Of a stretch of DNA of 64,000 nucleotides, positions 28,388 to 55,239 are shown piece by piece. The number at the start of each line of letters is the position of its first letter. The first letter of the stretch is position 1. The DNA lies in the IMG/VR virus record IMGVR_UViG_3300042691_029560, positions 28,714 through 92,713 of that record. One strand, given 5' to 3'. Origin of the DNA: a virus. The translations under genes and the position numbers were made by a program. The notes beneath the pieces are model-generated. The model saw nothing but the letters and a program-made list of their open reading frames with translations, ran no database searches and had not been told where the DNA came from.

Positions 28388-28399
28388 TCTAATAAATGA

Positions 28400-28561: not shown

Positions 28562-28935
28562 ACTAATCTTCTTTCTTCGGGGAAACTACCCCAAGTAGAG
28601 TTTGTGGCTCCGGATCATTCTTCCGGGCCATACGATCAGCATACAGGAATAAGATCCCATAAGAGATCCCATTGATCAATAAGATCGATCCAATGATCGC
28701 AAGTAAAAACCATAAAAGTTCCATTAGTCCACCAAATCTTCATCAAAAGTAGAATACCAATCATCTTTCTCAGATCCGTATAGGTATAAAACCTTAGCAA
28801 TCGGCAGCAGCACAGCTACGGCCAGGATCAAAAAGATAAACACCCCTAGGGTGAATAAAAGGATTGTAAGGATCATAAAGAAATGATACCTTAGAAAAAA
28901 CCCCCCTAGTTTATGACTAAGGGGGTTATCTACTA

Positions 28936-29381
28936 CTAATCTCTATGCCTACGCCTAATAAATCTAGGCAATTCACTAATAGCAAGAACCAAAGCACCAA
29001 AGATTAGCAATAGACCGAGAGATAGTCCAACAAACATAGAGTTTGTATGACCGAGATGCTCACCAAAGTAAAATCCCATAATCACCGAACTACAACCGAG
29101 AGCCATTAGTAAAAACTTCATTAGTCATTTCTCCTTAGAGCATCAAACGCAAACAACAAAGTAAATCCTACACCGAGAACCATACCGAACCCAAAGTAAT
29201 CGGCAAAGGTGTTTCCATTAGAACCAGCACCATAAGCGATTAGCATTACGCAACCAACCGAATAGACAAGTCCAACAAACGGAACAATAACAATACCAGC
29301 AAGTAATCTACGAACAAAGAACTTCATTTGTAATCTCCTTTCCTGAGATACTAAAAGTCTATACCACAATAAAGCAAACAC
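28936..29381 (-). CDS. Two small membrane proteins (28936-29121, 29121-~29327)
   Basis: Hydrophobic two-helix ORFs with coupled stop/start and AGGAG RBS. Confidence 0.6.
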
Positions 29382-29729
29382 ACAAGTATTTATTTAGACC
29401 ACTTTTTAGGGCAGTCCATATGGAAATAGGTAATAAGAGCCTGAGTTGGATCGGTAGTAGTAGCACCACACCACATACAAGACCAGCTCTCTTTTTTAGA
29501 CTTCTTAGGGGACTTACGATCTGCCATTAGTTTCTCCTTTACTTTTTGGCGTTTAGGTTGTGAGCAATCCAAGATAACTTATGAGCAACGCTTACAAGCG
29601 TGCCACTAATACTTAGCAAGCGTTTAGCGATTTTCTTTTTCATTAGAACTCCTTGTGTTGTAAGTCTAGTGGATTAGGTGAGCAGTTTAGAACACTTGCT
29701 CAGGTGTTATCTCTTTCTATGAGATTGGC

Positions 29730-29960
29730 TTATGATAACTTTTCACCGAGAGCAGTTAGCAACTCGTAAGGTGAAACACGCAACTCTCGGCAAAGGGTAG
29801 CAAGCGTGTTTGACGGGATGTGTCGCTGATTGTGAAAGTATCGGCTAAGGCTAGACTTCTGTAAGCCCGTAGCGATTGCGAATTGGTTTAGGGATTGGTA
29901 GCCCTGACTTTCATACTGAGCAACGAACCACGCCCAAGTATCTACTTTTTTCTTTCCCAT
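29730..29960 (-). CDS. XRE-family HTH protein
   Basis: SLNQFAIATGLQKSSLSRYFHNQRHIP..LCRELRVSPYELL. Confidence 0.8.
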   Translation of the reverse strand: MGKKKVDTWAWFVAQYESQGYQSLNQFAIATGLQKSSLSRYFHNQRHIPSNTLATLCRELRVSPYELLTALGEKLS

Positions 29961-30091
29961 TTTGTTTCTCCTTTTCTAATCGGGAATAACTCAATCTAAC
30001 CACAACTCAAACTTATTCGCAAGTTTATTTGTATCCGTGTTTGGATCGGTTTCCAGAGATCTCCAAGCTTCGGCCGGCCATAGCCTAGACA

Positions 30092-30616
30092 CTACCAACT
30101 CGGGTTAGTAGTGTCTAGGGCTAGCAACCACTCAACAAAGTTAGGGTTGAACAGAACTAACTCGTGTCGCTTCTCACGCATTAGGTCAATCGCTTCTTGG
30201 ACTTGGTATCCGTCAAGCATTAGAACTATCGCCATAAGTAAGCCAGACCTATTTAGACCTGCTTGGCAACGGACTAGCACCTTTTCCCCAGACTTCCAAT
30301 CAGTAAAGATGTTGTAAGCGATACGCATAAATGCTTTTTCATCAAAGTCAGTATCAGCACTATCAAAGTATCCGTATCTAAACTCTTTTACTAACCAATC
30401 AACAGGGTTAGCGTGAGCATAGAAAGTATAAACGCTATCAAAGTTTCGCTTCTTGATAGAGATTAGGGGTCTATCAAACTCGCAATGCTTATCACCAACT
30501 CGGTCATCATCATCAGTTCCACCTAGCCAAAGGTTAGGCAGTATCTCACTCCAAAGTTCAGGCTTGGTGAACTTCTTAGTTTTTGCTTCGTCATAAGATT
30601 TTTCGTAGTTATTCAT
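30092..30616 (-). CDS. Dual-specificity protein phosphatase
   Basis: EILPNLWLG; CX5R P-loop VLVRCQAGLNRS. Confidence 0.85.
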   Translation of the reverse strand: MNNYEKSYDEAKTKKFTKPELWSEILPNLWLGGTDDDDRVGDKHCEFDRPLISIKKRNFDSVYTFYAHANPVDWLVKEFRYGYFDSADTDFDEKAFMRIAYNIFTDWKSGEKVLVRCQAGLNRSGLLMAIVLMLDGYQVQEAIDLMREKRHELVLFNPNFVEWLLALDTTNPSW

Positions 30617-31031
30617 TTTGTCCTTTCACTAACTACAACCTAAATACTATTTGATTTATTCCCGAGATTAGAAATAATTTTGGATCGTGTTTAGTCAAAC
30701 TCCCGAATAGATTTTGACTTGTTAGCCAAGCGTGTTCTTGCTCGCTTGCTTCGCTTATCAGCGTGAACGCCACTAGCGTTAGAGCGTGAACGCTCACGCA
30801 ACATAATCTCCAACGCCAAAGCTTCGGCATTACGCCTTGCCTTATTAGCCTTGTTCATTTTCATTCCTTTCCCGAATGGCAGACACTCTAATCCTATCAG
30901 TTAGGGCAGACATAGCAAGTGGCGTGTCGCGGCCACAGATCAACCGGCAGAGATCTCTACCGGATCTCCCGGCCGGTAGAGATAATCCCCCTGGCGAATG
31001 ATCCAGGGGGATTTTCTAAGTCGGTGGCAGA

Positions 31032-31244
31032 TTAGATGTAATCGCTAAACGCTAGCAAAGGGTCAAAGGGTTCTGGCTTTTTCTTTACTCGCATTTTCTC
31101 AACATAATCGCTGTCTTTCCATTGCTCGGCTCCACAAGACGGACAAAGTAGTTCACCCGTTCTAGTTAGCGATTGCTCCCCGTAGAAGTGTCCACAAGCA
31201 ACACAATCAAAGATGTAGATGTAGTGTTTTCTAAACCCGAACAT
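31032..31244 (-). CDS. Zn-ribbon protein
   Basis: CVACG..CPSCG; GGAAAGGAAA RBS. Confidence 0.6.
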   Translation of the reverse strand: MFGFRKHYIYIFDCVACGHFYGEQSLTRTGELLCPSCGAEQWKDSDYVEKMRVKKKPEPFDPLLAFSDYI

Positions 31245-32810
31245 TAGTTTCCTTTCCTAGTAGTTTTCGTTTAGGTATTCCATAAGTTCAGTATAACTCT
31301 TTCCAAGAGAAATCAAACTAATAAGTTGCTCATCCATAGCAAGTAAGTTTATGTCTATCAAGCTCTCACCCGAAAGCATAAGTAAGATTTTACCTACTGC
31401 TCCAATTCCCATTTCAGTTCCTTTCCAGAGAATTCCAGCAATTCGTTTTTCTGCTCATCGGTGAGCATAGCAAACGCCATACCAGCAAGATACGCATAAG
31501 CGTTATCCTCTTTATCAGTTTTACCTGTCCTGATTAGGTTGTCGATAATTTGTTTTGCTAAAGTATCCATTTGGTTCCTTTCTTATTCGTTGTCTAGTTT
31601 ATCAGGTTCATCGTAGTTATCGTGCCAGATTTCATCTGGTATCGCCCAAATAGTTTCTAACTCCATAAGTCGCTGGTTCAGCACTCTTAGGGTTTTGTTT
31701 TTTGGTTTTTCTAGCCAAGTTGGATCGTTTGTTATGTCGCTGATTACTGCCTTGTAAGCGTCTGCTAGTTCCAAGGTTGTTTCCTTTCATCCGTGTATCT
31801 AAACATTACCACATTTGATTATTTTACAAAGTTTAGATCGATCGGTGTTGATTATTTTTTTCTTTTCTTTTTATCGCCAATTGCGACAATAATATCAACT
31901 TCGTAGAAGCGTTCTACAACTTCTCTTGCTGTTTCCCAAGTAGATAGTTCGATGTAAGTTCCATTGTGCATTTCCACAAGTTCATCAGCAAGGCGTTCTA
32001 GTAGTTCATCGCTACTTAGGTGTTTTACATACTTAGCCATTAGTTAGTTTCCTTTCGGGATTAGGGGTTTCAGTTTATAGCAAACTTGCGACATTAGGCA
32101 AGATTTATTCCGGCAAGTCTGGATCAAATTTGTAAAGCTTCTTTACTCCGGATTAGTCTGCTTCTTTAGAACTCTAACTCTCCGGCTAAGTCTAAGGTTA
32201 GGTTGGAATGGAATTAGTCCGGCGGCCATCGCCAGGTACACAAGTTCGTAAAGCTTCCGTGTCTGGAACTTGTCTAGTTCAGCGATCTGTTCAGGCGTTA
32301 GTTTAGTTCTCACTCTTGCTCACTCTCGTCAATAGGAAACGCTTGTCTAAACGCTTCATCTACTTCGGGGTCAAAGAGCCACTCCAAGAAACCCCTAACA
32401 CCACTCTCGGTGTTCAGGTCAAACTTAGGGTTCAGTAGTGGGTTCTGGTCTGGGTCTGGGATTTGATTAGTCATTTACTTCCTTTCAGTAAATAGAACCA
32501 AGTTTATTTAGGATTTATTCCCGATTTGGATTTTATTTTTCAGTTGTCGCAACCTAATCCGTGTTGTCCCGTGGGTCTTACACCACTTCGGGTGCTTACA
32601 CGGAACTAAGACAAGTCGCCTTTCGCCGAATGGGTCTTTATCTTTCAGTAGTCCAAGGGCAAACAATTCGGCTTTCTCGGCATCGCCTTTTTTCTCAACA
32701 AACATAACTTTCCTTTCCAATAAAGATAACTCTATCAACCTTGGATTTATTCCCAAGTATTTCAATAAGTTTTGATCGGCCGGCCGGTGAGCTTAGCCAC
32801 GCAGATACGG

Positions 32811-32936
32811 AAACACCCCCAACCAGAAAAATAGAGAAAACTAGTTAGGGGTGTTCCTTTATAGGAAAGGAAACTACTGACTTGGTGAAACATGAAAAAC
32901 CAAGTCGGGCAAGTGAGATACTCTCGAACTTGCTTA
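32811..32936 (-). ncRNA. Candidate small RNA carrying anti-RBS sequence
   Basis: TTGCTA-N17-TAACCT promoter, several hairpins, terminator, no ORF. Confidence 0.45.
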
Positions 32937-33024
32937 TTGCTAGGTTAGCAAATAAATAACAAAATAGCAACACCAAAAGCAAAAAACCGTAGCAATTTAG
33001 CTACGGTTTTTCGCTGATTTGGAT

Positions 33025-33582
33025 CTATCCAGCAAACGCAGGTTTTTTGTTTGATACCTGATCAATGACCCTTACAAACCGGATCTGACTATTTTTGTAG
33101 TCAGATAGTGGCTGTATGATCGTCGATCTTGCTCCGTAATGAGCGTTTATGATCTTTCCATTACCAATATAGATTGCTGAGTGGTAGAAGCTATGACTGC
33201 CCTTGTAGGCAAACACAACCACATCTCCAGCTCGGGGGTTGGACACACGCTTACCAATATGCGCTTGCTTATCGGCAGAATGAGGGATTTCTAGGCCGAA
33301 CCTTTGGTAGGTCCAGCGAACTAATCCTGAGCAGTCCCAACCCCTTGGAGAAGATCCGGAGAACACATAGGGTGTTACTCCAACCTTAGTCCGTAAGTAT
33401 TTGATGACTTGCTTCATCCGGACAGTATTGCGATGAAGCTTCAACGGATCGTCAGAATACTTATTCGCAACACTATTTTTCTGATCCGAAACAACCATAG
33501 GTCTATGATCGTATCCGGACGCAGCTGATGAACATCCAACTAGCATTAGGAGCACACTAGTTATTGTGATGAACCTCTTCAT
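33025..33582 (-). CDS. NlpC/P60 cell-wall peptidase, lipoprotein-like signal
   Basis: LVGC lipobox; PYVFSGSSPRGWDCSGLV, GDVVVF, HSAIYIGNGKIINA. Confidence 0.9.
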   Translation of the reverse strand: MKRFITITSVLLMLVGCSSAASGYDHRPMVVSDQKNSVANKYSDDPLKLHRNTVRMKQVIKYLRTKVGVTPYVFSGSSPRGWDCSGLVRWTYQRFGLEIPHSADKQAHIGKRVSNPRAGDVVVFAYKGSHSFYHSAIYIGNGKIINAHYGARSTIIQPLSDYKNSQIRFVRVIDQVSNKKPAFAG

Positions 33583-34093
33583 TTGGCGACCACCTTTCCT
33601 TGCGTTAGTACAGGTCGTTTATTGTCGGGTCTCCCGTCACATTGATCCGAAAACCAATGTGTCTAAATTATAAGGGCCAATTAGATCTACAAACAACATT
33701 TTTGATCAATTTTTCCGAAAAAATAGCAAAAACCCCTGGAAAACCAGGGGTTCTTACATTGACCGGAGATTTCTACTCTGCCGGTGTGTTCTCGGCGATT
33801 TGCTCCTTGAGCCAAGCTAACGCAGCCTGCCGGCCCTTTACTCCGCGACCGAAAGTCTTGTAAGCGTCAATGTTGAGCAACCGGCCCAATGACTTCATAG
33901 CCGGTTCGCCAAAAGTCATCTTTCCGTCTGTGCTGATTTCAAACTCCAAGTTGATAACTAGGATTTCTGCCTGTAGTGAGTTCATTTGATTTCCTTTCGC
34001 CTAACTACATAAAAAGCCTACACCAAAAACTAAAAAACACAAACATAAAAACATAAATAGATCTGTTTCTATGTTTGTGTCGTTTAGTGTTTG

Positions 34094-36012
34094 TTAGATA
34101 CTCCACGCACCAAAGTCGGTATCGGCAGCGATACGCCTAGCGTTCATCCACGCACTTTCTCCATAAAAGTATGTGACTTTCTTGGTGACTTTGTTTCTAA
34201 CTTTCCAATAGTCTTGCTCGAATACCGCAGTTCCATAACTAACTTCCACTAGGTCGCTGTTATAAGCAACTGTCCATTCTTTCACTAGACTTACGCTTGG
34301 CTTAGCCATTTAGTTTCCTTTCGGTTGATTATCGATAATCTGTGTAAATAGTTTATTGACTACCCTGTCCATATGGCAAGGGTCGCATAGAAAAGATTCG
34401 CTCGGTAAAAGCTCCGTTCGGCAGTCTAAACAGGTTCGCACTATTTCAGCGCCTTTCTAGTCTTTCTTAGCGATACCAATTCCTTTACATCGCTAATGCC
34501 GATATTGTCTAAGGCAGATACAACTTTGTAAGCAATTTCTAATGACTTGTGTTCGGTTGAGATAGGGGCTAATACTTTGGTCGCAACTTTGGCAACAATC
34601 TTGGCAGTAATAATTTCGGCTAGCATTTATTTCCTTTCGTAGAATTACAGACTACATTACACCTAAGACATTTCGCAACATTTCACCAAACTAAATTGGA
34701 TCGTGTTGTAGAGATCTCTAAGCTTGGTGAGCAGATAGGCTACGGCCTATCTGTCGAAAACAGTATCTAAAAACTCTTGCTTTGTATAGACAACTTCTCG
34801 ATAGACAACATTTCCGTCGTCAGCAGAAATAATAATTGCTTCATTGTCGTCAGCGAAAAATCGGTTCTCTCCCACGCTAATACCGAAACTTAGGTTTCCG
34901 TCATAGTTAGCCCGTGTAGAAAACTCATAGAAAAGTTGAGCAGTTAGATAAGCAGGGTCGCCAATTCTATCTGTTCTCGATAAAACATCTACTACGGCAA
35001 GCACATTATCTGTTCCTGACCAGTGGCCGTAAAGGTGGATAGGTTCGATAAAGTCTTTGCTTGTTACAATAATTCTTGACCTGTCGCCCATTTGGATTTC
35101 CTTTCATTCGGGACACTAAAAGACTACACCTAACCTAAGACATTCGCAAGCGTGTCGCAAGCCGGCCGGAGCTGGATCAAAAAGTTGTCCCCCGTTAGGC
35201 GCTAACATAACGGGGGACTAATTTGGTCGTACACCTAAGCAGTTGTTGTGAACATTATTAAGTTATTTATACTTAGATGTTTGTCGCGGTTGCGACTAGA
35301 AAACTCTACCAAAAATTTTATTTATCGGCAAGCTTAGAGATCTTATGAATAAACCCCCGGTGTATTTCAACCGGGGGTTTACCAGAATTATTTATTCTGG
35401 CAATTCATCCATAACTTGAATTGTGAACAGCAACCCATTCTTCAATTCTGTTTTGGTTGGCATTCTTCCAAACTCTTCTTGGAATGTTTCAATCACTTGG
35501 TCAACAGCGTGTCCAATAATGTCTGCTGGGGTATCTCCCCAAACTCCGGTAACTTCTTCTTCAGGAACTTCCCTAAAGATAATTGAGTTTGAACCTTGCA
35601 TTCTCCAATAACCCATTTTGATTTCCTTTCGTTAGGTTATGTATAAACTCTACACCATACCCCAGACATTTCAAGTATTTATTTACAGATCTCTAAACAG
35701 CTTCGGTAAAGACTAACCCCCGATAAACTATCGGGGGTTAGGTAAGGTCTAAACAGATTAGGCGATTTGGTTCTGCCAATACTCTCTAATCTTTGCGATT
35801 TCTTTCGCTTCTGCTTCTTTCTGCTCTCTCATTTCTGCTTCGTGAGCATTACAGACAATAGTAGCCATTAGGTCAATAGCGAAAGGGCTAGCCATTTTAT
35901 CGGTAAGAATATAGTCAATCTGCTTTACCAAACTCTCGATTTCGTAAACTGCCTTTGGCTGAACTGAGTAGTGTGAAGCGATTGCCATTACTAGTTTCTC
36001 TTTTAGTTCCAT
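34094..36012 (-). CDS. Separate small cassette ORFs (34094-34309, 34441-34626, 34747-35091, 35392-35616, 35758-36012), hypothetical
   Basis: Each has a GAAAGGAAA RBS; most have their own promoter and hairpin terminator. Confidence 0.7.
35096..35170 (-). promoter_or_regulatory. Representative cassette promoter
   Basis: Sense strand GACACGC-TTGCGA-ATGTCTTAGGTTAGGTG(17)-TAGTCT...GAAAGGAAA; the same layout recurs upstream of many cassettes. Confidence 0.75.
35184..35297 (-). ncRNA. Candidate ~115-nt small RNA
   Basis: TTGCCG-N17-TAGAGT promoter, two hairpins, GC terminator, no RBS or ORF. Confidence 0.4.
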
Positions 36013-36192
36013 GCTCGGTGTTTCCTTTCCGTAGTTTCTGGCTTTCTGCCATTACCTAAATACTAGCATACCCATACGGAAACTTGTCAAGGTTTTTATA
36101 AATATTTTTTGGCGTGTCTATTGGATCAGGATCAAGTTAGCATCCGGATCAAGATCTGAACCGGCCGGTGATCCGTGAAGCTGGCCAGAAAC

Positions 36193-36412
36193 AACAAACC
36201 CCCTGCGTCTCCGCAAGGGGTTATGTAGTGAATAGGTGGATTGCGTTTTACCACCAGTGCCTAGTCAATTCGGTTCTCATAGATCCGCTTTTGAGCACAC
36301 CCGCCCTTTACCCGCTAAGGTGAACCGCTAAGTTCAGGCGTTGCCTTGTCTGACCCATTTGACGTTTCAGACTATTCAGCCATACTCCAAGTTTCCTGTC
36401 GGAACCTTGTTA
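36193..36412 (-). ncRNA. Candidate ~220-nt structured RNA
   Basis: TTGCGG-N17-TACTAT promoter, multiple stems, terminator CCCCTTGCGGAGACGCAGGGGG-TTTG, no cassette-type RBS. Confidence 0.5.
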
Positions 36413-36671
36413 TCTCAATAGTATATGAAACAGGCATTTACCGCAAATCAAGACACGCTAATTTGATAACAAATTTATAACGGATCTGCAGCCCTGATCA
36501 GCTTCGGATCTAGCCTGGTAGATCCGGCTAGGATCTCAGCTTAGGATCCAGCTCAGCTGCTCCGGAGGATCCGGCCGGCCAGGATCATTGGACAGATCTA
36601 AATTTAGCTTCCCCCCGATCCATAAAGTAAACCCCTAGTACTTTGTACTAGGGGTTACTTCGGCAGATTAC

Positions 36672-37043
36672 TTATTCGCCACGCTTACGGGACATCAACA
36701 TCCCGAGCATTCCAACCATAGCCAACCAGTCCAGTCCTTCATTGGTAAGTCCAGTTGGTTCACCTTCGGCAGTAATGCCACCAGTAAATACGATAGTTCC
36801 AGCGATAGGGTGTGGATTTTCCAAACAATCAAACGCAACAGCGTAAGCGATAGTTCCAACAGGGTTGATTGGTAAGTTGTGGATTAGTCCTTCTTCATTG
36901 ACCCACATAGTTACCATAGGGTTTAGTCTAACCATTTCCACATAGCCACCAACTTTGTCCTTCATAACTTCATACCAGTCGGTAGATAGTTGTAGTTCGG
37001 TTGGTTCTAGTTCGGTGTTTGTTACAACTGCTAAGTTACTCAT
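36672..37043 (-). CDS. DUF3846-like protein
   Basis: VGGYVEMV..MWVNEEGLIHNLPINP..IAGTIVFTG. Confidence 0.75.
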   Translation of the reverse strand: MSNLAVVTNTELEPTELQLSTDWYEVMKDKVGGYVEMVRLNPMVTMWVNEEGLIHNLPINPVGTIAYAVAFDCLENPHPIAGTIVFTGGITAEGEPTGLTNEGLDWLAMVGMLGMLMSRKRGE

Positions 37044-37798
37044 TTGATTTTCCTTTCCGTGAGTAGTTCCAGTTTATAGCACGCCAGCGACATTTGGCAA
37101 CATTTATTTTCCGTGTCGCTAACAGATCTCTAGCCTAAGCTAAGCGAGCGATTACTCGCCTAGTTCTTTTAGTTCTTTTTGTAGTTGGTCAAGTTCGCTT
37201 TTGATTGTTAGGGCGTATTCTTTGTTGGCTCGTAGCCTTGTAATAATGTTGTCCAAGTCCATAGATAACTTTGCTAACTGAGTATCATCGGTAGGGTCGA
37301 TGTTTCTAATCTGGGTAATGATACCTTCCATTAGCGACAAGATACCTACGCCATCAAGTCTAACTTTTTTGATTTTCTCATTTAGTTCTGCTAAACGCTC
37401 TTGCATTTTTTACCTTTCGTGGTTGATAACTTCATACTACTAATAACTGCCGACATTACAAGTTTATTCCCAAGATTTTCTAGAAATAATCCGGACAAAC
37501 TTTTCTCCCCGGTCATTGATCATTTCGGCCAGGTCGTAATCATCTCCGGTAAAGATTCGGCCAATTCCATCCGGGCTATAGAAATGAATGGTGCAACCGG
37601 GCAGACAATAAATAACTTCGGTGTTCCATTTCTCGTAGTCGCCGGCGTCAAGCTGGTCATCGTCTAGAACTAATGCAATGTTTGGTGATTTGTGATTATT
37701 CATAATTTCCTTTCGTCAATGAAATCTTACCAGGGCCGGCAGACATTCGGCAAGAATGAAACCCCGCCACACGATCTCTGGCGGGGTTTATTCAAACT

Positions 37799-37996
37799 TT
37801 ATTCTTCTTCTTCTTCTTCTTCTTCTTCTTCTTCTTCTTCAACTTCTTCAACTTCAATACTTTCAACGCTGTCGTATTCAAGTTGAGGGTCATCTCCGTA
37901 GTAAGAAGACCAAGCCAGTTCTTCGGCTTCGGCTTCGGTGTTGGCTTCAATTTCGCCTGAATAATTTACTTGGATTTTTACATAGAACTTTGGCAT
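37799..37996 (-). CDS. Small acidic protein with poly-Glu tail
   Basis: EIEANTEAEAEELA motif; (GAA)n run. Confidence 0.7.
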   Translation of the reverse strand: MPKFYVKIQVNYSGEIEANTEAEAEELAWSSYYGDDPQLEYDSVESIEVEEVEEEEEEEEEEEEE

Positions 37997-38589
37997 TTGC
38001 CTACTCCTTTCCCGAGTGGTTTCAGTTTAGCGTAGTTTTTTATTTTTACGCAAGTTTATTTTGAATTATTTTTTGGCGTGTCTTCCAGAGATCTTTCAGC
38101 TGCAATTAGTTACCGGGGTAACTAATTTATGATCCGCGGAGCTCCCCCGAAACTGCCTAATCACTTAGGCAGTTTATCGGTAAGCATAACTAACGCTAGG
38201 CGATACGCTTCACGCTTCATCAGTGCTTCATCTTGCTCAGGTTTGTGTTGTTCAGCGTGTTCGTCAGTTCCGTCAGTTGTCCAGTTCATTCTGCTAATAC
38301 TTTCGATAACCCATTCGGCATACTTATTGGCAACTGTGCCGATAGCCCTTGCTAAGTTGTAGGGGTTCTCAACCTTGTATACATTTTTGATAATGAGTTC
38401 AGCGTATTCTTGTGGTGTAGTGTTCATTGATTTACCTTTCCAGTATTTACCTTACACTACTAACAACCAGTTTGCTAATCTATTTATTCCCGAGATTAGA
38501 AATATTTTTTAGAGATCTCTCGAGCCCCGGCCGGTAAGTAACCCCCAGGGCAGCTAATCTCTGTGGATCAGATTTGCCCCAGAGAAAGA

Positions 38590-45224: not shown

Positions 45225-45743
45225 TTAGCAAATCTCAAAGCCACCAGAATTTAGCAGAAATTCGGCAAATTCTTTTAGGTCGTCAATTTCCAAATCGTAA
45301 TTGGTTTCCCAAGCCTCTTTTTTGCCCTCGCCATTACAGCCATTACACCAGCCAATAGTTCTGCCTAAGAGAATAGCAAGTTCGGCAGGGAGTTCTCGTT
45401 CAGGCATTTTGTTTTCAGTTCCAACTTCGTCAGCCCTGATTCCCGAACCATCACAGAATTCGCAGTCTAATCTCGGCAGACCAGCAAGGTAAGCGTTTCG
45501 TTGCGAGATGTAAAGTTCGGCAGTTCCATCAGCAATAGCAGAGAGAATAGCGTTTCCAAGTTCCACGCTAGCAGTTCCATCTAGTCCATCGCCATCGTTA
45601 GAGTGTCCATACTCAACAGCACCAGCGATTTCGTTATGAACATTTAGGCAGTAATCCCAGAGTGGTCGCCAACCCCAAACATTACGACGGAAATACGCTC
45701 CTACTTCATTAGTAGGATTCTTACCATAGACATCCATTCCCAT
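45225..45743 (-). CDS. Hypothetical protein with DnaJ-type CxxCxGxG motifs
   Basis: MGMDVYG..YFRRNVWGWRPLW; CEFCDGSG, CNGCNGEG. Confidence 0.7.
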   Translation of the reverse strand: MGMDVYGKNPTNEVGAYFRRNVWGWRPLWDYCLNVHNEIAGAVEYGHSNDGDGLDGTASVELGNAILSAIADGTAELYISQRNAYLAGLPRLDCEFCDGSGIRADEVGTENKMPERELPAELAILLGRTIGWCNGCNGEGKKEAWETNYDLEIDDLKEFAEFLLNSGGFEIC

Positions 45744-45975
45744 TTTTAGTTTTCCTTTCACTAGGGAATTTATTACTAGGTCAGTTTATAGCAACGCCCC
45801 GACATTTAGCAAATTATTAGCAAACTTTTTTTCGGCGTGTTTTGGATCATAATCAACGCCCCGGAGCTTATCGGCAGAGATCTCCCCGGCCTAAATATGA
45901 TCCGCGCATCTCCGGCCGGAAATAGATAAAGGCCGGCACCAACCGGCACCGGCCAAATCTTGAAATCTCGGCAAA

Positions 45976-48709
45976 CTATTCTTCTAGGTTTCCAAGTTCC
46001 CACTTATCGCAAAGGTCGCAACCAAACTCACCATTAGAGTTAGGTTGTAAATCGTGGTCGTTATTCTTGAACCACTCGGCAAACTTAGAGCGCTCACTAT
46101 CAGTCGTGTATTCAATACTCGCCCAAAAGTGTTCATCAATCTCGTCTTCGTCAATCACAACTAAGTTAGTGTGGTCGCCCCAGTTTCCGTCTTCGGCAAA
46201 ATAAAAGTTCGGCATTACTTCTCACCCCCACTCACCCAAGTATCAATCTCGCTAAACTCTACGCACTTACAAAGTTCATCACCTTCGGCTTCGGCTTCTT
46301 CACCAAAAGGCGGAAATCCGCAAGAGCAATCTTTACCCGAGATGTAGTCGTGATACTTCTGTTCGGCTTCTTCGGGTGTATCGGCAACAACATCATACTT
46401 CTTGCCGATAAGTACTTGATAAATAGCCATTAGGTTTCCTTTCGTTAGGCTCATACAAAGTCTAGCGGTTTAGGTATCTCCACGCAACAACACGCCGCAA
46501 CTTATTCTTGGAGATTCACCGTTGATCATAATCGCGCAGAGATCTCTAGCTCGCCGTAATCTTTAGCTCGCCGGCCGGTAGATACGGCAAAGGGGACATC
46601 ACCTAAGTGACATCCCCACGCCGTTCAGTTCGGGTTAGCGATACTGCCAGAGTTCAAGTTCTTCTTCGGTTGCAAGCCTGAAGATAAACTTGCCAGTCCC
46701 CATCGGCTCATCGTGCGAGTATCTAACGGCAGACATCTCGCCGTCTTCGTAAGTGAAGCGTAAAGTAAAGTCGCCGTTTATCGCAAGTGCCTTGATGATT
46801 GCATCCGTGTTCGTCTTAGCGATAGCGAACCCACTACGGCGTTGCCAACCCACGCCAGAGCCACCAATGTAAAGCATGTCGTCTTCAGTCCAACCTTTAG
46901 ACTTGATGAACGGCTGAACAATGTCGTAGTCCAAATTGGACTTGTCGTCTTCATAGCAACCCATACACCAATCGGCAGGGACAGGGTCGCCGTCTTCGTC
47001 TAAGACTTCACTCTCGGTTTCTTCATCCCACTTGGTGCAACGGCAGTAATCAACTAACTCGTATTCAATCTTGACCATAATCTTTTCCTTTCGCTTGGTC
47101 GTGTATCCAGTATAGCGGTTTATAGTTTCAATGCAACTTTATCGGCGTGTTCAGATCGATCCGTTTAGCTCGCCGTATCGTCATCGGCATTAGTGATAAT
47201 CTCGGCCAGCTTCACCATTACGGACTCAACCCATTCAGGGTCATCGGCGCGCTTCCACGCGTCATAGACTAGCCCGAAAACAAAGTCTTTTTCATCGGCA
47301 GACAGATTACTCATCTTCGGTTTCTCCAACTTGGTCGGCATAGCCATACTCAATTAGGTTTTCGTCTAACTTTCTTAGTAAAGCCAACGCCATCTTTTTT
47401 CTCTCGTCAGCGTTTTCGTGATTATCGGCAAAGGCGTAAGTTTGAGAAATAATACTCCACAGATAATCGTGTTCCTGTTTGGTTAGTTCCATAATTTTCC
47501 TTTCGGGTCGTAAGTCCATTATACAGATTTATCAACTCGCCGCAACTCTATCCGCGTGTCGCGTGGATCGGAGCTGGCCGGAATTAGTCTTCTAACTTGG
47601 CCTGGCACTTGGAGCAATAGACTTCATCGTCTTCCCAATAACCAGGCCGGCCACAGTGCCACCAAGAGATGTCTTGGTCGTCTTTCAACTCCCAGTTACT
47701 CATCAAGAGATTCCACCGTGTAGTCCCAACGCCTAAGCGTTAGGTCAAGTCCCTCGTTATCAAAGATTCTGGAAACAGCAAGCATCGCGATATGGTAGTC
47801 GTCTGCTTCAATCTCGCCATCATAATCAACGGTAGTAATAAAACTAGTCTGGTCGGTTGTTAGGGTTACGGTATAACTTGCCATGTGATTCTTCCTTTCG
47901 TTAGGCATGTATCTATTGTATCGGTTATCGGTTATTAGTCAAGCATAGGTCGTAGTTTCGCAACGGATCTTTCGTACTCAGCTTCTGTCTCAGCTCGCCA
48001 CTCCCCGAGCTCGTCACTCCAAACTAATCCGTCATGAAATCTAGCTACCGCGGTATCGTCATCGATCTCCACCTCGCCGGTTTCAAGATCCACAGCAACA
48101 ACAAAATAAAGCTTCTCACTCATCAAACACTCTCCGTTTCATGTAGGTCGCACCAGCAACCTTCGTCATCATCAGGGTATCCAGCATGCTCGCCAACCGG
48201 TAAGCATGTTTGGTGATAAAAATTTCCTTCTTTATCTCGCACGTCGCAGTCTAAATAAATCTGCTTGTCGCACTCGTCGCACGCAAATCCCGAACACTCG
48301 GCGCAACCCCAACCGTCTTCAACCGGCAACCGGTTCACAAATCTACCGGAGCCAAACGCAGTACTCTCGCCACAATAGTAGCAAGGGTCAATAACTTTCT
48401 TCTTTCCCATTACGCACCACGCTTTCCTGCTGGATGTCTAACCATACTAATCTGTAAATCAAACTCTTTCTCGCCAACTCTCTCGTAATACTTGTAGAGA
48501 AAACCAGCGAGAACTACACGGTAAAACTCGCCACGCTTAGACTTCGGGAATAACTTGTAAAACGCTAAGGCGAACACTAACCGTTTAGGCACGCCAACTT
48601 CGCCAAGCAAAAACTTTCTTGACTTCTTATTTAGTTTCAACATAACTAGTCCTTTCACTAGTGAATACCGTATCACTCTACCAAATACCCATGACATTTG
48701 TAAGAACAC
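45976..48709 (-). CDS. Cluster of small, mostly acidic or Cys-rich hypothetical ORFs
   Basis: ORFs in track with GAAAGG RBSs and cassette promoters. Confidence 0.6.
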
Positions 48710-48786
48710 GCCGACAAAAGATCTGCCCGCGTAATCTTAGCTGGCCGGATCGTGCCGGCAGATTTCTCCACCGGCACTCGCCGAAA

Positions 48787-49524: not shown

Positions 49525-50196
49525 TTATTCATCGGTCGGTTTAGCAAACTTCTCAAAGTCGGCACGCATCTCACTCTCACCGATAACTCGGTTAGGGTCG
49601 TTGGTGTCTCTCGGGCAGTCTTCATACCACTCTTCTTCATCGTCAAAGTGGCTACACACACAACCATCTACATCGTCTTTCGCAACATAGTCAGCGTGAG
49701 AGTTCGGGATGTCCCAAGAATGAGTTTCTTCTACCTCGCCGTTCTCGCCGACATAAGTAGAACCCCACCCCTGTTCTTCTTCGCACCAGAACTCAAAGCG
49801 TAGTTCGGGGTGTTGCTCAACCATCGCACTCATTACAGGCTCGGGGATACTCCACGCCGTATTGTAAGAGATACTAATACTTCCAGTTGTGATGTCTTCC
49901 TTGCCGATGTAGGCATCACACGCATCCCACTTAGTTCCCCAGTTGGCAACATTCCAGTTATACCAGTTCCCACTAGTATCCCCCATTGACTTTCCATCAG
50001 CGTATCCGTGAATACCAAAGTATTCACCACTATCTACGATGTCTTGACTTGGTGATACAAAGTTCCAGAAAGAGAAGTATTCATCACTCATCTTGCCGTC
50101 TTCTTGTGGTCGTGGTTGTGTTGATTTCTTGATAAAGGTTTCAAGGTCTTCTACCTTGCCTGTAATCTTTACAGATGAATAAACCCAGTTTGGCAT
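49525..50196 (-). CDS. DUF1281/YubB ferredoxin-like domain protein
   Basis: MPNW, WYNWNVANWGTKWDA, YNTAWSIP. Confidence 0.7.
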   Translation of the reverse strand: MPNWVYSSVKITGKVEDLETFIKKSTQPRPQEDGKMSDEYFSFWNFVSPSQDIVDSGEYFGIHGYADGKSMGDTSGNWYNWNVANWGTKWDACDAYIGKEDITTGSISISYNTAWSIPEPVMSAMVEQHPELRFEFWCEEEQGWGSTYVGENGEVEETHSWDIPNSHADYVAKDDVDGCVCSHFDDEEEWYEDCPRDTNDPNRVIGESEMRADFEKFAKPTDE

Positions 50197-51590
50197 TTGA
50201 TTTCCTTTCGTTAGCCGTAGTAAGAGTTTAGCGAAGTTATTATCTCAACGCAAGTTTATCGAGCTAAATTTTTACTCGCCGTCGTCGTCTTGATCAGATA
50301 GACAAGTGCAATCAGCCGGGTATCGCTCTAAACAGATCTCGCACTGAGTTCCGCAGGCCACACATAAGCAGTTCAGCTCCATCACCGGCTCCTATTCTTC
50401 TAACTTCCCACCGAGCATCGAGTAAACAATTGAATACGCATCCATCGCGCCTTCAAGATAACTAGCAGTATCATCATCGCCTTCTTCAAGAGCAGTAAGC
50501 GATAGTTCTTCCATCTCGTCAATCCGGATTTCACAGAACTCTTTTAGTTCTTCGGGTGTAGCAGGGAGCATTACGCCCCCTGCCCGAACTCGTCAGGTCT
50601 TCCAATGAAGTTCCAAGTGATAGTGTCGTCATCTTCTTCCACCTTTTCCCACATTTCAGCAATGTTGTCGTCAATGGCGATTTGGACAAACTTGGCGAGT
50701 TCCACGCCATCAGGGTTGCCAATTTTCTTGCTAATCTCAACGCAGAGTTCAGCGAGCATAGCCATTGGTGGAGTTGATAACTTCTTGCCAGCGTGGTCGC
50801 TTAGCACAAACAGAACACTAGCAACTAGGGTAGCAAGAACTTCTGCCCCATCATCAGTATTCCTGACCAACTCAATAGGGTTGGTGAATTCATCGTTCTC
50901 GTGGTCGTGGTTCGGGTTATCGCACATAGGGTTTCCTTTCGTAGAGTGCTTACATAGCGATTATGCCACAGCCCTACGACATTTCGCAACACATTTCACG
51001 AAATTCCCATAAATAAATTTATCGTTATAAATTCTGATCCACCGGAGTTTATCGAAGCTAATACTGTTTCCGGAAAGTTTCGATCTCCGGAAAGCCGCCT
51101 AGACATCTGACGAGTCCGTCAGAAGTTCTTACCACCCCCCGAACCTACCGGTTTCATGATTGTTCCTGGATCTCCGGAAAGCTCAGCTCAGCTTGATCCA
51201 GGATCACCCGTTCCTGGTGGCATATCTTTTAACAAGCTAGCGGTTAGCTTCGTCAGATGTTACCCCCTCACCGATACACTGCAGCTTTCTACGGTTGCAG
51301 CTACAGCACTCCGTTAGAAGTTACCTTCCCTTTCAGATCTCCGGTCCCCAGGTAACAGGCACTGACCCGTTAGCTCGTTAGCTTCTCACCAACGTCAGCG
51401 GTTAAAGATCTCTACATCTAACCTAACCCTGACCCTGACCTAGGGCACGCGGTTATTTGATCCACGCTTAGGGCTCGCCGCTTTTTGTTTTCGAAGCTTA
51501 GGCTCGCCGATAAAAAATTTCCCCACCGGGCACTTCATAAACGAAAGGAAAGGAAGTGATAGTGCCCGGTAGGGAAACTTGGCGGTTAGT

Positions 51591-53441
51591 TTAGAACGAG
51601 TTTCTCTCGCCCATCTTCGATAGAACTTCGGAAGCGGTTTGTCCGATAATCTTACTTGCTTCGACAACATTGTTAGAAACTGAAATCAGTTTGGCATCAG
51701 TATTCTTCACGATGAAACTAGCACCCGCAACGGAGTTGTCGTAGCCAATCCATAGAACAGCCACGCCATTACGCTTACACTCGTCTAGCCACTCTTTCGC
51801 TTTACGACTTTCAGGGTTAGTGAAGTTTCCATCCGATACAACGACAAGCAATCTCGCCCCTGTTCCGTAAAGTAAGTTGGACATACCATCTACCGCTTGG
51901 AACGCAGTATCGAATTGCTCTGTCCAATCACTAGCCGAATACACTTCGACTTCTTCTAGGTGTTGTCCGACAGATAGAGCAGGGAATACATCAGCACCGA
52001 AATAGACCATAGCGGTTCTCGCCTGAACTCGCCTACCCGCTTCGGATAGAACCCAAGCGGTAGTTGCCATAGGGTTCATGGCAGAACCCATAGAACCCGA
52101 GATGTCCACCATCACGCCAATAGTCAGCGTAGGCTCGTCAGTTTGTTTTCTAGTCTTGGTTTTCCATAACTCGATTGGAGTGTGGATGCCCTTTGATTTT
52201 AGAGCCTTGCTCTGAACTAAGGCACGACTTCTAAGTTTGCCAGCAGGAACGACTTGGTTATGAACGACAACATCTCTCTCACGATACTTCGCCTTTTCGA
52301 GCAACTTGGCAACGAGAACCGCAGACGACCTTTCCAACGAAGTTGGTTTTCTTCTCTCGACTAATCGAGAGTTAGTGTTGCCACTTGGTTCACCATCACG
52401 CTTTTTGTTTTCGAGAATACGCTTGGCGATTTTCTTGTTTGTTTCTCTTTGTTTCGCCTGTTTCGCACTCGACCTAACTTCATCCGCCCAATTCTCGGAT
52501 AACTGTTGCTCGTCAATTTCAGTTTGACCAGATAGAGAAGTGTTGTCGGCATCTTCATTTAGAGCATCAACAAGTTTTTTGATTTTGCCCTTGCCACTTT
52601 TGCCACGACCTTTTCCAGCTTCGCCATCTTCGCCATCTTCGCCATCTTCACTACCGCCACTTGGATAATGGCATCCACCATCGGGTTCTTGTCCAGCATC
52701 TTCGGAAAGTTTCTTCACGATACTTTCCCATCTTCTAGCCAACTCGTAAAGTGGTTCAGCGTTAGCGTGGTCAGCGTGGTTCTGAAACTCGATCCAGACT
52801 TCACGAAGTTCTGCCAACCCATCAGCACCAATCAGTTCCATCAGAACTGAATTGACCGCAACTACATCTTCGGGTTCGAGAACGCCAGCATCAACTCTCG
52901 CAAGTGTTAGACCAGCCAAGTAAGCACCAGCACGAACTAGCCCCATGTTTTCGAGTGCCTTATCAAGTTCGGCAAGCACGACTTCGAGAACAGAAACTCG
53001 CAGAAACGCTTTCTTATTTGGTTGAGCAATAACTCCCCACTTCTCAATTCTCGTTTCTTCGAGCAGGTGTAGCGCACCGAACTCGTTTTCATTGAGAACC
53101 TTGCTCGCATCTTCGAGTGAGTAGAGAGAGAACTTGGCGTGGCAACTTTCGTGATAGAGAGTTCCGAACCCCCTAGCGTTATCGTATTGGACATCTCTAC
53201 TTCTGATGTCGCCAAGATTTTCAGGGGTAGTTCCATAACCGAAAGATTTTGGAATACATACTTCGACTTCCGAAGTATTAGGGTTGTATCGAGCAGGATT
53301 AGGTTGTTCAGTATCGGCAACGAGAATAACTAGGTCGTTTCTATCCGACCACTCATTTACCAACTGTCCTAAGTCAGCACCTACTTTGAGCCACTCTTTC
53401 GGAGTGGTTGTTTTGATTTCTTCATTTGAGAAGTGAGCCAT
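51591..53441 (-). CDS. vWA protein with N-terminal HExxH metallopeptidase-like domain (CobT-like MoxR partner)
   Basis: YHESCHAKF..LEETRIE; MIDAS VDISGSMG; VVSDG. Confidence 0.85.
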   Translation of the reverse strand: MAHFSNEEIKTTTPKEWLKVGADLGQLVNEWSDRNDLVILVADTEQPNPARYNPNTSEVEVCIPKSFGYGTTPENLGDIRSRDVQYDNARGFGTLYHESCHAKFSLYSLEDASKVLNENEFGALHLLEETRIEKWGVIAQPNKKAFLRVSVLEVVLAELDKALENMGLVRAGAYLAGLTLARVDAGVLEPEDVVAVNSVLMELIGADGLAELREVWIEFQNHADHANAEPLYELARRWESIVKKLSEDAGQEPDGGCHYPSGGSEDGEDGEDGEAGKGRGKSGKGKIKKLVDALNEDADNTSLSGQTEIDEQQLSENWADEVRSSAKQAKQRETNKKIAKRILENKKRDGEPSGNTNSRLVERRKPTSLERSSAVLVAKLLEKAKYRERDVVVHNQVVPAGKLRSRALVQSKALKSKGIHTPIELWKTKTRKQTDEPTLTIGVMVDISGSMGSAMNPMATTAWVLSEAGRRVQARTAMVYFGADVFPALSVGQHLEEVEVYSASDWTEQFDTAFQAVDGMSNLLYGTGARLLVVVSDGNFTNPESRKAKEWLDECKRNGVAVLWIGYDNSVAGASFIVKNTDAKLISVSNNVVEASKIIGQTASEVLSKMGERNSF

Positions 53442-53570
53442 GATTTTTCCTTTCGTTAGGCTACTAGAAGTTTATAGATAGTTCTAAGTTTCCGCAAGTC
53501 CACCAGATCGACAACCGAGCTAATTTTCACTAGCTCGATTGCCGACTTGGTTTTCTAGGGATAGGACAAC

Positions 53571-54596
53571 CTAGATTTTGGCAGGGCGACAATCTTTTCC
53601 GAACACTCGGGTAAAGACATCAGCCACGATTGGTCTGTCCATTTCAGGCGAGCAAGCGAGCAAGTTGGCGATTGCCCAATCAGTTCCATAAGACTTCTCA
53701 ATCTCTCGGAACGCAAGCAACTCTCGGAATTGTGGCGACCAAGAAGTTTCACCTGAAAGTTGTTTCTTGGCGAGATTTTGACTTGCTGTAATTGCCAAGC
53801 GTGGAACGCCCAACTTTTTAGCAAGTTCCCAATCAGTAGTCATTTCGACTTGTAGCAAGCAACGAGATAACAAGGCTTCTGAAAGACGAACTCCGGGAGC
53901 ATTAGGGTTGGTAGCACCAACGACATAGAACCCATCTTTCGCCTTTACAGTTCCCCTTTCGGGATTTTGAGTGATGGTGATTTCTTTACGACCATCCATC
54001 AACCCATAGAGAGCAGATAGAACTTTTGGATCGATTAGTCCAATCTCGTCAATGAGAAGAACTTTCCCTTGCTCGGCAGATTTTACTAACGCACCATCCA
54101 CCCACTCGAAATCGCCACTTGGAGTTTGGACATAGCCACCAATGAAATCCGAAAGTTCAGTATCGCCTGAACCGAGAATTGTATAAAGTTCATCCCCGAA
54201 ACTTGCTTCGACCAATGCTGTCTTTCCGCAACCCGGGCTTCCATAGAGCAACGCATAGTGTCCAAGTTTTCTACCAAGTCGTAGCACTTCGACATCAGGC
54301 ATACCTGACCATTGACGAGAGTAGTAGAAATCACCATTAGGTCTTTCATACTTTTCTAATCCATCTACCATAGGGGCATCCACGACACGAACTTTCTTTG
54401 GAGTTTTAGGGGTAGCACTTCTCTTGGTGAGAGAACTTGATTTGTTAGACCACTTATCGAGAACCGCTTTTGTTTCACTTGATAATGATACTTGCTGTTT
54501 GGCATAAGCGAGTAGAGCAGTTGGAAGTCCAACTTCGAGTGATGAAAGTTTTGATAAATCTTCCATAGTTGTTGTTGATACTTTGTATGTTGGCAT
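53571..54596 (-). CDS. MoxR-family AAA+ ATPase
   Basis: GSPGCGKT, WVDGAL, LLIDEIG, GATNP, SEALLSR. Confidence 0.9.
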   Translation of the reverse strand: MPTYKVSTTTMEDLSKLSSLEVGLPTALLAYAKQQVSLSSETKAVLDKWSNKSSSLTKRSATPKTPKKVRVVDAPMVDGLEKYERPNGDFYYSRQWSGMPDVEVLRLGRKLGHYALLYGSPGCGKTALVEASFGDELYTILGSGDTELSDFIGGYVQTPSGDFEWVDGALVKSAEQGKVLLIDEIGLIDPKVLSALYGLMDGRKEITITQNPERGTVKAKDGFYVVGATNPNAPGVRLSEALLSRCLLQVEMTTDWELAKKLGVPRLAITASQNLAKKQLSGETSWSPQFRELLAFREIEKSYGTDWAIANLLACSPEMDRPIVADVFTRVFGKDCRPAKI

Positions 54597-54620
54597 TTTG
54601 ATTTGTCCTATCTTTTCTAA

Positions 54621-55106
54621 TTACGCCACGAATAATTCATCAGGGAAGCCAGCTTCTTTTCGAGTTCTAAGAACTCTACGAATTAGCCCCTGTGGAGTGT
54701 TGTATTTGCTAATGTCCATAGCATCTTGGAGTGATACTTCGAGAGTGATAACTTTGCCATCTCTAATCTTCCAATCTCTCTCAATCATGTAAGCAAGTTG
54801 AGTTTGGATCGGGGCGAGAACTTCTGATGCTAATTGCTGTTTTACATCAGAAGATAGTGTCGTATCGAACTCGTGATTAGTTCCGACAAGTTTGGTATCA
54901 GCCACACTTGTCGAAATGTGGTTCATCTGCCATTGCGCTCTTGGCGACCAATTATTTACAGTTCGCCTAAGCATGGTGTTAGGAACTCTCTTACCATCCA
55001 CGATTGCTGATGGAGTGAGAAGAACCTGTGCTGTTTCTTTTCCATTAGTAGATACGAACTCTAAATAGAGAGCCTGACCTACTAACTGACTTTGTGTTTC
55101 TTCCAT
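54621..55106 (-). CDS. Hypothetical protein, first gene of the MoxR-vWA operon
   Basis: GAAAGG RBS and upstream TTGACT promoter-like element. Confidence 0.7.
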   Translation of the reverse strand: MEETQSQLVGQALYLEFVSTNGKETAQVLLTPSAIVDGKRVPNTMLRRTVNNWSPRAQWQMNHISTSVADTKLVGTNHEFDTTLSSDVKQQLASEVLAPIQTQLAYMIERDWKIRDGKVITLEVSLQDAMDISKYNTPQGLIRRVLRTRKEAGFPDELFVA

Positions 55107-55239
55107 TGGATAACCTTTCGTTGTAAGTTGGAAGTTGTTATTACCTAATCAACCTTAGCGATTTTTCGTTGGAAGTCAAGTTAGATTTATATAATTCTCA
55201 AATATTTTTTCCGGATCTTCTGTTGGCCTAGATCGATAA

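Follow-up and report, generated by a model that had tools for sequence, protein, structure and literature searches.

A palindrome-purged block with site-rich spacers in the genome of an uncultured freshwater actinophage

Why would one third of a phage genome be nearly free of short palindromic DNA words, and why would some of the same words crowd the gaps between its genes? This question is raised by a stretch of viral DNA of 64,000 nucleotides (IMG/VR record IMGVR_UViG_3300042691_029560, positions 28,714 to 92,713; hereafter the window), which is the last 64 kb of one 92,713-bp linear viral contig with a CheckV completeness of 54%. A first-pass annotation of the window, made from the letters alone, had described gene cassettes free of restriction sites and separated by polylinker-like spacers over positions 28900-55200. 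We found that the high end of this region is about right, whereas its true start lies at ~23,860, so that the gene of the terminase large subunit (TerL) and lysis-type genes are taken in.

The window comes from a natural, widespread and uncultured actinophage. Its TerL shares 78% identity with that of Actinomycetia phage DSL-LC01, known from a lake metagenome, and 60-64% with the TerL proteins of Microbacterium phages of ~190 kb. The habitat is freshwater, the relatives infect Actinomycetota and the host itself is uncultured. Since the same DNA is present in runs of 16 studies, mostly freshwater, and a related terminase is encoded by 460 IMG/VR stretches, the phage is neither a construct nor a chimera; these runs, together with independent IMG/VR contigs carrying the same block, ruled out an assembly chimera or a synthetic construct.

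Limits and word content of the purged block

Two classes of palindromic tetramers are distinguished below: class 1 (ACGT, TTAA, GTAC, TGCA, ATAT and CATG) and class 2 (GATC, CCGG, AGCT and GGCC). Class-1 words are nearly absent from a block that makes up about one third of the phage genome and ends at the terminase gene side. The main landmarks are as follows.

~23,860-55,190 (31.3 kb), unstranded: palindrome-purged block with 98 class-1 sites, 3.15 per kb
24000-24860, unstranded: non-coding satellite with repeats and an A/T-rich core, at the TerL-distal block edge
24848-55106, minus strand: about 61 co-oriented open reading frames (ORFs) in about 40 units of promoter, ribosome-binding site (RBS), ORF and terminator, from gene calls and RBS and promoter motifs
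55107-55239, minus strand: first promoter of the block (TTGACT, 16 nt, TAAGGT), in the divergent intergenic region at the high-coordinate edge

In the rest of the window, class-1 sites occur at 22.1 per kb, and the contig's 28.7 kb beyond the window are at the same level. At the low edge, the final class-1 site before the block lies at 23,858 and the next only at 25,766; at the high edge, normal density is back at 55,189, within the intergenic region that holds the block's first promoter. The edges are sharp to about 100 bp and coincide with this promoter and with the satellite.

Gene calls were rule-based, and the 32% of the block called intergenic include at least one RNA gene and some missed small ORFs. 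For the ORFs, synonymous codons were resampled with the proteins fixed, using either the codon usage of the outside genes or the block's own usage reshuffled. The block ORFs contain 417 palindromic tetramers, compared with 1081 +/- 28 expected under the former null and 1054 +/- 27 under the latter (z about -23), and significant depletion under one null or both is found for 13 of the 16 palindromic tetramers. Genes outside the block (24 kb) are at expectation, with 1386 palindromic tetramers for 1337 +/- 31 expected, in agreement with the earlier statement that late genes use these words freely. Codon usage and G+C content are nearly equal inside and outside the block, which does not support a recent foreign origin; the sites have thus been lost via codon context, as for selection on DNA words.

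Analysis of all 136 strand-symmetric tetramers revealed that ACGT (0.04x) is the most depleted, together with TTAA and GTAC and then CCTC/GAGG, TGCA and ATAT. The median ratio of block to outside frequency is 0.56 for palindromic tetramers and 1.01 for the others (p=1e-4), and 0.65 for interrupted palindromic pentamers compared with 1.04 for non-palindromic ones (p=1e-5). ACNGT, GANTC, GCNGC, GTNAC, TTNAA and GGNCC are at 0.20-0.37x, whereas no non-palindromic class of the form xyNzw falls below 0.49x. Some asymmetric words are avoided as well: CTGGAG/CTCCAG has one occurrence in the block versus 36 expected, and CCTC and GAGG are both low on the coding strand, i.e., depleted on both strands, which indicates selection at the DNA level and not at the mRNA level. 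The depletion signature is that of avoidance of restriction-type recognition sites rather than of a constraint on mRNA or translation.

The RBS sequence GAAAGGA has 41 minus-strand copies from 25,199 to 53,454, most of them preceded by a -10 element (TAnAnT) and a -35 element (TTGCGA, often TTGCGAAATGTC); one more minus-strand copy, at 23,583, lies within a coding region. Terminator-like sites over 24.8-44.7 kb number 34, compared with 16.7 in shuffles. The following genes of the block are informative with respect to the two classes of words.

25756-27168, minus strand: TerL, without class-1 sites and with GATC, AGCT and CCGG at normal levels
27851-28375, minus strand: late or lysis-type protein with a peptidoglycan-binding domain; 17 GATC, 9 CCGG, no class-1 sites
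30092-30616, minus strand: site-free early ORF, dual-specificity phosphatase fold; 0 class-2 sites
33025-33582, minus strand: lysis-type NlpC/P60 endopeptidase; 9 GATC, 4 AGCT, 4 CCGG
45225-45743, minus strand: site-free early ORF, in which only AATT and CTAG have more than one copy among palindromic tetramers
49525-50196, minus strand: site-free early ORF; 0 class-2 sites
51591-53441, minus strand: vWA-like protein of 616 aa (Pfam VWA match below cut-off), TCGA-rich and class-2-poor
53571-54596, minus strand: AAA_5 (MoxR-like) ATPase, TCGA-rich and nearly free of GATC, AGCT, CCGG and GGCC

The TerL, NlpC/P60 and peptidoglycan-binding genes carry GATC, CCGG and AGCT at or above expectation. 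Because such late-type ORFs within the block tolerate class 2 but not class 1, two rules can be separated: class-1 avoidance tracks position in the block, and class-2 avoidance tracks membership in an early unit. Therefore, the description of the cassettes as site-free holds for early ORFs but not for these three genes. As first reported, 30092-30616, 45225-45840 and 49525-50196 contain no GATC, AGCT, CCGG or GGCC; other palindromic tetramers are rare in the three ORFs, only CTAG, TATA and (in one ORF) AATT being present. The roughly two sites noted in the 1.85-kb vWA-like gene are one GATC and one AGCT. TCGA is found mostly in three promoter-end ORFs, encoding a 161-aa protein, the AAA ATPase and the vWA-like protein, and the GATC and CCGG sites within ORFs mostly in TerL and the lysis genes, the heterogeneity among ORFs being significant (p 1e-4 to 1e-13). 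At 28376-28935 (minus strand), we also observed three small hydrophobic ORFs, holin-like by eye and missed by the gene caller, with 12 GATC in 560 nt.

Composition and layout of the spacers

In the spacers, the four class-2 words behave in the opposite way. Compared with dinucleotide shuffles made per spacer, GATC occurs 103 times versus 31.5 expected (z=+14), CCGG 79 versus 30 (z=+9.7), AGCT 63 versus 36 (z=+4.8) and GGCC 41 versus 29 (z=+2.5). The proposal that local enrichment goes beyond what avoidance can produce was therefore borne out. On the other hand, saturation of the spacers is limited to these four words: TTAA occurs 6 times versus 73 expected, and ATAT, ACGT, GCGC, GTAC and CATG are likewise depleted. 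Class 1 is thus purged block-wide, whereas class-2 words are avoided in early ORFs and cluster in the inter-unit gaps. In late genes, GATC, CCGG, AGCT and GGCC are at or above expectation, and hence these tetramers are evidently harmless to the phage.

Class-2 sites peak 75-175 nt 5' of start codons, directly upstream of the -35 element, with nearly none in the last 50 nt and none in short intra-operon gaps. Many of them lie in longer boxes, which form recognizable families.

30055-51413, unstranded: palindromic box AGAGATCTCT, 18 copies, counting those with a single mismatch (consensus TAGAGATCTCT), each in an inter-unit spacer of the block
30969-46578, unstranded: box CCGGCCGG, 11 perfect copies, with 0 elsewhere in the 92.7-kb contig
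36481-36621, minus strand: densest polylinker-like stretch, 21 class-2 sites in 141 bp versus 6.0 +/- 2.1 in shuffles
45744-45975, minus strand: model spacer with terminator hairpin, CCGGCCGG, AGATCT box, GATCCAAA-ACACGCC, A-tract, -35, -10 and RBS

The TAGAGATCTCT-type box is sometimes lengthened to a 22-bp inverted repeat, and for CCGGCCGG we estimated that base composition predicts ~0.5 copies. Further boxes are AAGCTT or GAAGCTTC and the asymmetric GATCCAAA-ACACGCC, which is followed by an A-tract and the -35 element. The boxes tend to recur in the same order just upstream of the -35. In the model spacer, the ~15 sites reported for 45841-45955 are exactly 15 in 115 bp (7 CCGG, 4 GGCC, 3 GATC and 1 AGCT), whereas 2000 dinucleotide shuffles gave 4.6 +/- 1.9 class-2 sites with a maximum of 11.

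The densest polylinker-like stretch sits upstream of the promoter of a manA-like RNA (RF01745, 36225-36406, minus strand; E=1.8e-10, 51.2 bits, below the gathering score of 55.2). This RNA has its own promoter and terminator and is located within a 659-nt stretch of the early arm that was initially called spacer. An Rfam scan of the long spacers found nothing beyond it. A long non-coding stretch after the vWA-like gene (51030-51420, minus strand), which had no Rfam match, contains three GGTAAC-TCT-ACG-like motifs and 23 class-2 sites and may be a structured RNA or a binding array.

Several structural sources of the enrichment were considered. Terminator stems were rejected as the source of CCGG and GGCC, as most stems are hairpins of a C-run and a G-run and few hold these sites. 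Hairpin or cruciform potential was rejected as well: four of six polylinker-like stretches have no unusual folding energy (z -0.2 to -0.8), and the two with lower values (z -2.0 and -2.5) hold the AGATCT box extended into a long inverted repeat. Helical phasing was not observed either, class-2 sites having no 10-11 bp periodicity.

The block and its spacers in related phages

One relative, G001 (81 kb), is collinear with our phage at ~78% nucleotide identity and has the same 31-kb block with the same edges, although 8 of the 61 block ORFs are missing and local rearrangements are present. The density of GATC in G001 is 13.2 sites per kb in the spacers, compared with 3.3 in ORFs and 5.3 outside the block; for CCGG, the corresponding values are 6.7, 2.2 and 1.5. 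A two- to four-fold excess of spacer sites is kept in both phages, and yet only 20-31% of the site positions are common to them. The sites lie preferentially in segments that cannot be aligned to G001; such segments make up 42% of spacer bases, and the spacers are often unalignable although the flanking ORFs align. Within aligned spacers, identity is 0.81 for site bases and 0.79 for other bases, and GATC and AGCT are kept in 67-75% of cases versus a background of 51%, with CCGG and GGCC at background, which is weak evidence either way.

G002, a complete genome of 137.5 kb, has only four sites of ten tetramers in 15.6 kb (30.5-46.1 kb), with gaps of 5.4 and 6.7 kb between sites. Its spacers are unremarkable: ORFs and spacers contain AGCT, GATC, CTAG and AATT at equal frequencies, and CCGG and GGCC hardly occur. 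G002 shares the ACACGCC box located upstream of the -35. At 46.1-50.0 kb, the purged arm of G002 is interrupted by a 4-kb island of normal density whose right junction falls within TerL near codon 255, and the 5' part of its TerL is not free of class-1 sites. This island looks like a recent recombinational replacement; its junction inside TerL indicates that recombination brings in unpurged DNA.

These two relatives bear on the original suggestion that spacers are decoys or sacrificial cut points, such that enzymes cut only between units and each unit stays expressible, or such that the sites soak up the enzyme. Class-2 sites are indeed located in the gaps from terminator to -35 and absent from early transcription units, and their density is kept in G001 although most positions differ. 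Moreover, if the arm were partly a long terminal repeat, as in the phage A3Wally described below, one copy would in principle be expendable. However, extra sites are no better than none, which leaves the proposal with no obvious selective logic, and short linear DNA fragments are quickly degraded by RecBCD- or AdnAB-type nucleases. In addition, spacers shun class-1 palindromes just as ORFs do, many class-2 sites form part of longer ordered boxes, and the arm carries TerL and lysis genes that need intact inheritance. Since G002 has the cleanest arm and lacks spacer enrichment, the protective strategy as such does not include site-rich spacers. Thus, the decoy proposal is not supported, and we consider it quite unlikely.

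The low sharing of positions at a kept density is compatible with selection on site number. Class-2 clusters might then be positively selected, fast-turnover arrays that act by number and are kept out of transcribed early DNA, a view that we regard as unlikely. Such arrays could serve as landing or cutting sites, whether for a DNA binder that is early or co-injected, for a restriction-like enzyme or for a methylation-sensitive binder. The protein bound there might insulate units, hold incoming DNA, shut early promoters after replication alters methylation, or process a disposable first-entering copy of a terminal repeat. The exclusion of class 2 from early units may reflect the need to keep a site-binding or site-cutting protein off transcribed early DNA, a function with which the turnover of sites relative to G001 is compatible. 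That the partition is one of cut-proof or roadblock-free expressible cassettes versus functional, site-dense gaps is a similarly doubtful proposition.

Other relatives avoid words in different ways. G005 (complete, 135,336 bp) has 0 GATC, 0 AGCT and 1 ACGT genome-wide, with very low CCGG, TCGA, CGCG and GCGC, and encodes N4/N6 methyltransferases at 51.3-54.4 kb. Searches for Dam, C5 and N4/N6 methyltransferases (PF00145, PF01555 and PF02086) found no match in our 54%-complete fragment or in the complete G002; as two thirds of G002 are full of sites, protection there must come from something other than self-methylation. DSL-LC01 (129,469 bp, 53.6% G+C) has 0 TTAA and 0 ATAT genome-wide and no block. 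A3Wally, a cultured Microbacterium phage whose TerL is 64% identical at the amino acid level, has a 15,503-bp direct terminal repeat of small forward genes upstream of TerL (its last 10,000 bp are identical to positions 5504-15503), and the annotation tables retrieved for it contain no feature marking this repeat. Both DSL-LC01 and A3Wally were rejected as replicates of the block, neither having block-limited depletion. In 59 loci, at least 5 kb are known upstream of TerL; this stretch is strongly purged in 23 of them, intermediate in 20 and normal in 16, and the upstream arm is never the site-richer one in loci for which both sides of TerL are known. The purged arm is thus an evolving trait of this phage group, and the site-rich spacers a lineage-specific addition.

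A mosaic history could produce this pattern: the arm or its cassette ORFs would circulate in a pool of genes to which lineages with genome-wide avoidance also belong, ORFs would carry the union of avoidances acquired in past lineages, homogenised spacers would display present tolerance, and no positional selection would act at present. The ORFs differ strongly in the palindromes that they carry, G005 illustrates a lineage intolerant of particular words, the G002 island demonstrates that segments move by recombination, and homologues of 16-18 of the 61 block ORFs are encoded in the arms of G002 and G005. Class-2 avoidance by early units may also be a matter of history if cassette ORFs circulate among lineages like G005 that do not tolerate GATC and AGCT. 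Against such a history, codon usage and G+C content of the block equal those of the rest of the genome, the block limits match functional landmarks and are identical in G001, and TerL, which is inherited vertically, has no class-1 sites either, except in the 5' part of the gene in G002. In several independent lineages, no part of the locus is more purged than the arm upstream of TerL, which argues for continuing, position-tied selection. A purely historical origin is therefore unlikely in our view.

The satellite at the low edge consists of an AGCT-based 12-nt unit in ~26 copies and a 41-nt unit in 3.3 copies, flanking an A/T-rich core with about six TGATCA-type hexamers, and many IMG/VR contigs terminate at this position. 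Satellites are found at the matching position in G001 (GATC x44 and AGCT repeats) and in G002 (CAGGCT-type repeats); the element is thus kept in position but not in sequence. It is a candidate pac site, injection-stop signal or origin. Next to it, two TTAGGTTAGCCTAACCTAA-type palindromes (23890-23993 and 23790-23830) are followed by the stretch AAAGTCAAAAAACGTTAATGTATCATTTTTA, of which G002 has a nearly unchanged copy in the same location; there, the TTAGGTTAGCCTAACCTAA-type boxes are replaced by a different palindrome, TTCGAACACTTGTTCGAA. This is likely the control region of the structural operon.

Exposed early DNA and comparison with known systems

The explanation that we favour, and to which we give about an even chance, is that the block is an early arm exposed to host restriction before protection is in place, and that the spacer boxes are regulator-binding arrays. 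The arm would probably be terminal: ~40 units with host-type (sigma-A-like) promoters run into the terminase genes and stop at the satellite. It would meet host Type II restriction before protective early functions act, while the remaining genome would enter or be exposed later and could afford sites, by the same logic as in the first-step-transfer (FST) region of T5 and the leading region of T7-like phages. The co-orientation of the block, its host-type promoters and the bounding satellite fit ordered entry. Two geometries are compatible with the data, and neither is preferred: the left genome end could be near 55.2 kb with the satellite as a stop signal, or packaging could run from the satellite toward the head genes, in which case the arm would be packaged last and injected first.

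The site-rich spacers would form a separate, lineage-specific layer between one terminator and the next -35. Their class-2 sites would belong largely to palindromic boxes of 6-12 bp (TAGAGATCTCT, CCGGCCGG and GAAGCTTC) and to the asymmetric GATCCAAA-ACACGCC, which are candidate binding arrays for dimeric regulators of early promoters and may travel and be homogenised in the form of composite terminator-promoter cassettes, much as PeSLs do in T4-type phages. Besides being palindromic and ordered, the boxes lie at positions typical of operators or activator sites, and every palindrome used in them is one that the late genes of this lineage tolerate as well. In this respect, the alternative offered in the first-pass annotation, that spacers recruit other binding proteins, is favoured in spirit by the ordered longer boxes upstream of the -35.

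Several points weigh against this explanation. We infer that the arm is first to enter from a linear fragment of 54% completeness, and A3Wally and DSL-LC01 share the gene layout yet show no block-limited depletion. The block holds late functions (TerL and lysis-type genes), unlike the FST region of T5. Regulator boxes do not account for the lack of GATC, AGCT and GGCC in early ORFs, nor for the 20-31% sharing of positions at kept density and the bias toward unalignable segments, which suggest selection on number or rapid replacement of cassettes. About half of the spacer GATC and CCGG sites fall outside the named boxes, and no candidate protein binding the boxes was identified.

Ordered entry is also required by a self-immunity model, in which early nucleases of the phage itself degrade host DNA and the arm is free of their sites, the rest of the genome being still outside the cell while they act. 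This model accounts for the sharp block and has a precedent in the proposal of Davison for T5 A1 (discussed in bioRxiv 10.1101/866236). However, no nuclease family was found among the 20 largest block proteins, and one or two enzymes could not account for so wide a purged set (~13 tetramers, several pentamers and some asymmetric words). Relatives also differ in the sets that they purge, in better agreement with a variety of host enzymes. We therefore consider self-immunity very unlikely, and prefer exposure to host restriction.

Three raw-read runs searched for genome ends or two-fold depth contained no reads of the phage. In run X10, summed contig depth is 25-28 in the block and 16-17 outside, which is not copy number, and nothing was concluded from it. 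Two further proteins of the window were noted. A 1690-aa protein (4237-9309, minus strand), adjoining an ORF of 3341 aa, contains ADP-ribosyltransferase, Tc-38-like, ArdC N-terminal and polyvalent-protein metallopeptidase domains; it is a candidate for a co-injected protein with an anti-restriction or effector role. Among the head genes lies one for a 372-aa protein that has a ferritin/Dps-like domain (19668-20786, minus strand).

If the exposed-arm explanation is true, sequence alone could reveal in what order the DNA of uncultivable phages enters and how far their exposed segment extends, and the sets of purged words would indicate which restriction enzymes occur in hosts such as freshwater Actinomycetota. 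The relatives have met this pressure in three ways, by purging one block, by losing two or three tetramers throughout the genome, or by neither, and the group is thus a natural system for the evolution of anti-restriction strategies.

Several known systems resemble parts of this arrangement. In SPO1, host-takeover genes have strong promoters and ribosome-binding sites, and the DNA contains hydroxymethyluracil. About 24-26 small early genes of this phage are clustered in the terminal repeat (PMC10531801, PMC6873191), and no restriction-site partition has been described for that module. The satellite of our phage, located by the terminase genes with its TGATCA-type hexamers, recalls the pac site of P1, which contains GATC hexamers. 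Cleavage at P1 pac is under the control of adenine methylation according to Sternberg and Coulby (1990), as cited in PMC12707154. This is a resemblance only, and the satellite sequence differs in G002.

Genome-wide avoidance of palindromic Type II sites is known in phages (PMC6286503). The same type of selection is seen in G005 and DSL-LC01, whereas in our phage avoidance affects only one third of the genome, and its edges are sharp to ~100 bp. In T4-type phages, PeSLs are repeated modules of terminator and early promoter between small accessory ORFs and are thought to mediate modular exchange (PMC2839356, PMC4122927). Here also, a terminator and a standard -35, -10 and RBS with shared upstream boxes precede most units, and the spacers are a family with ordered boxes, often unalignable between flanking aligned ORFs; however, PeSLs are not known for palindromic polylinker-like stretches or site-free ORFs. 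The second layer, tolerated palindromes in the gaps upstream of the -35 that are excluded from early ORFs, fits no described mechanism.

The closest parallels concern DNA that enters first. In Autographiviridae, only Type I motifs in the first-injected leading region decide sensitivity (PMC12455610). Avoidance confined to one region is sufficient there, but it concerns a single Type I motif over a few kb, known from escape mutants, and not a compositional block. In T5, EcoRI and CRISPR act on the FST region alone, where the EcoRI sites present elsewhere are missing; a pre-early function protects the remainder, and the inner border of the region is marked by a non-coding stretch rich in repeats and palindromes (bioRxiv 10.1101/866236). 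Our block likewise lacks restriction sites that are frequent elsewhere in the genome, and, like the T5 region, it would be a terminal-type array whose small early genes are transcribed by the host RNA polymerase. The same architecture, shared with T5 and SPO1, is found in the 15.5-kb terminal repeat of small genes of A3Wally. The block differs from the T5 region in its size (31 kb versus about 10 kb), in holding terminase and lysis-type genes, and in the avoidance of nearly all short symmetric words rather than one enzyme's site; moreover, among its 20 largest proteins, scanned against PHROGs and Pfam, no A1- or A2-like annotation was seen. The block is known from sequence, whereas for T5 and Autographiviridae the principle rests on experiments. 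Thus, avoidance in first-entering DNA is known for single sites in T5 and T7-like phages, and here it takes the form of a compositional block of 31 kb, involving ~13 tetramers as well as pentamers, which recurs in an uncultured group of actinophages in lake metagenomes of at least 16 studies.

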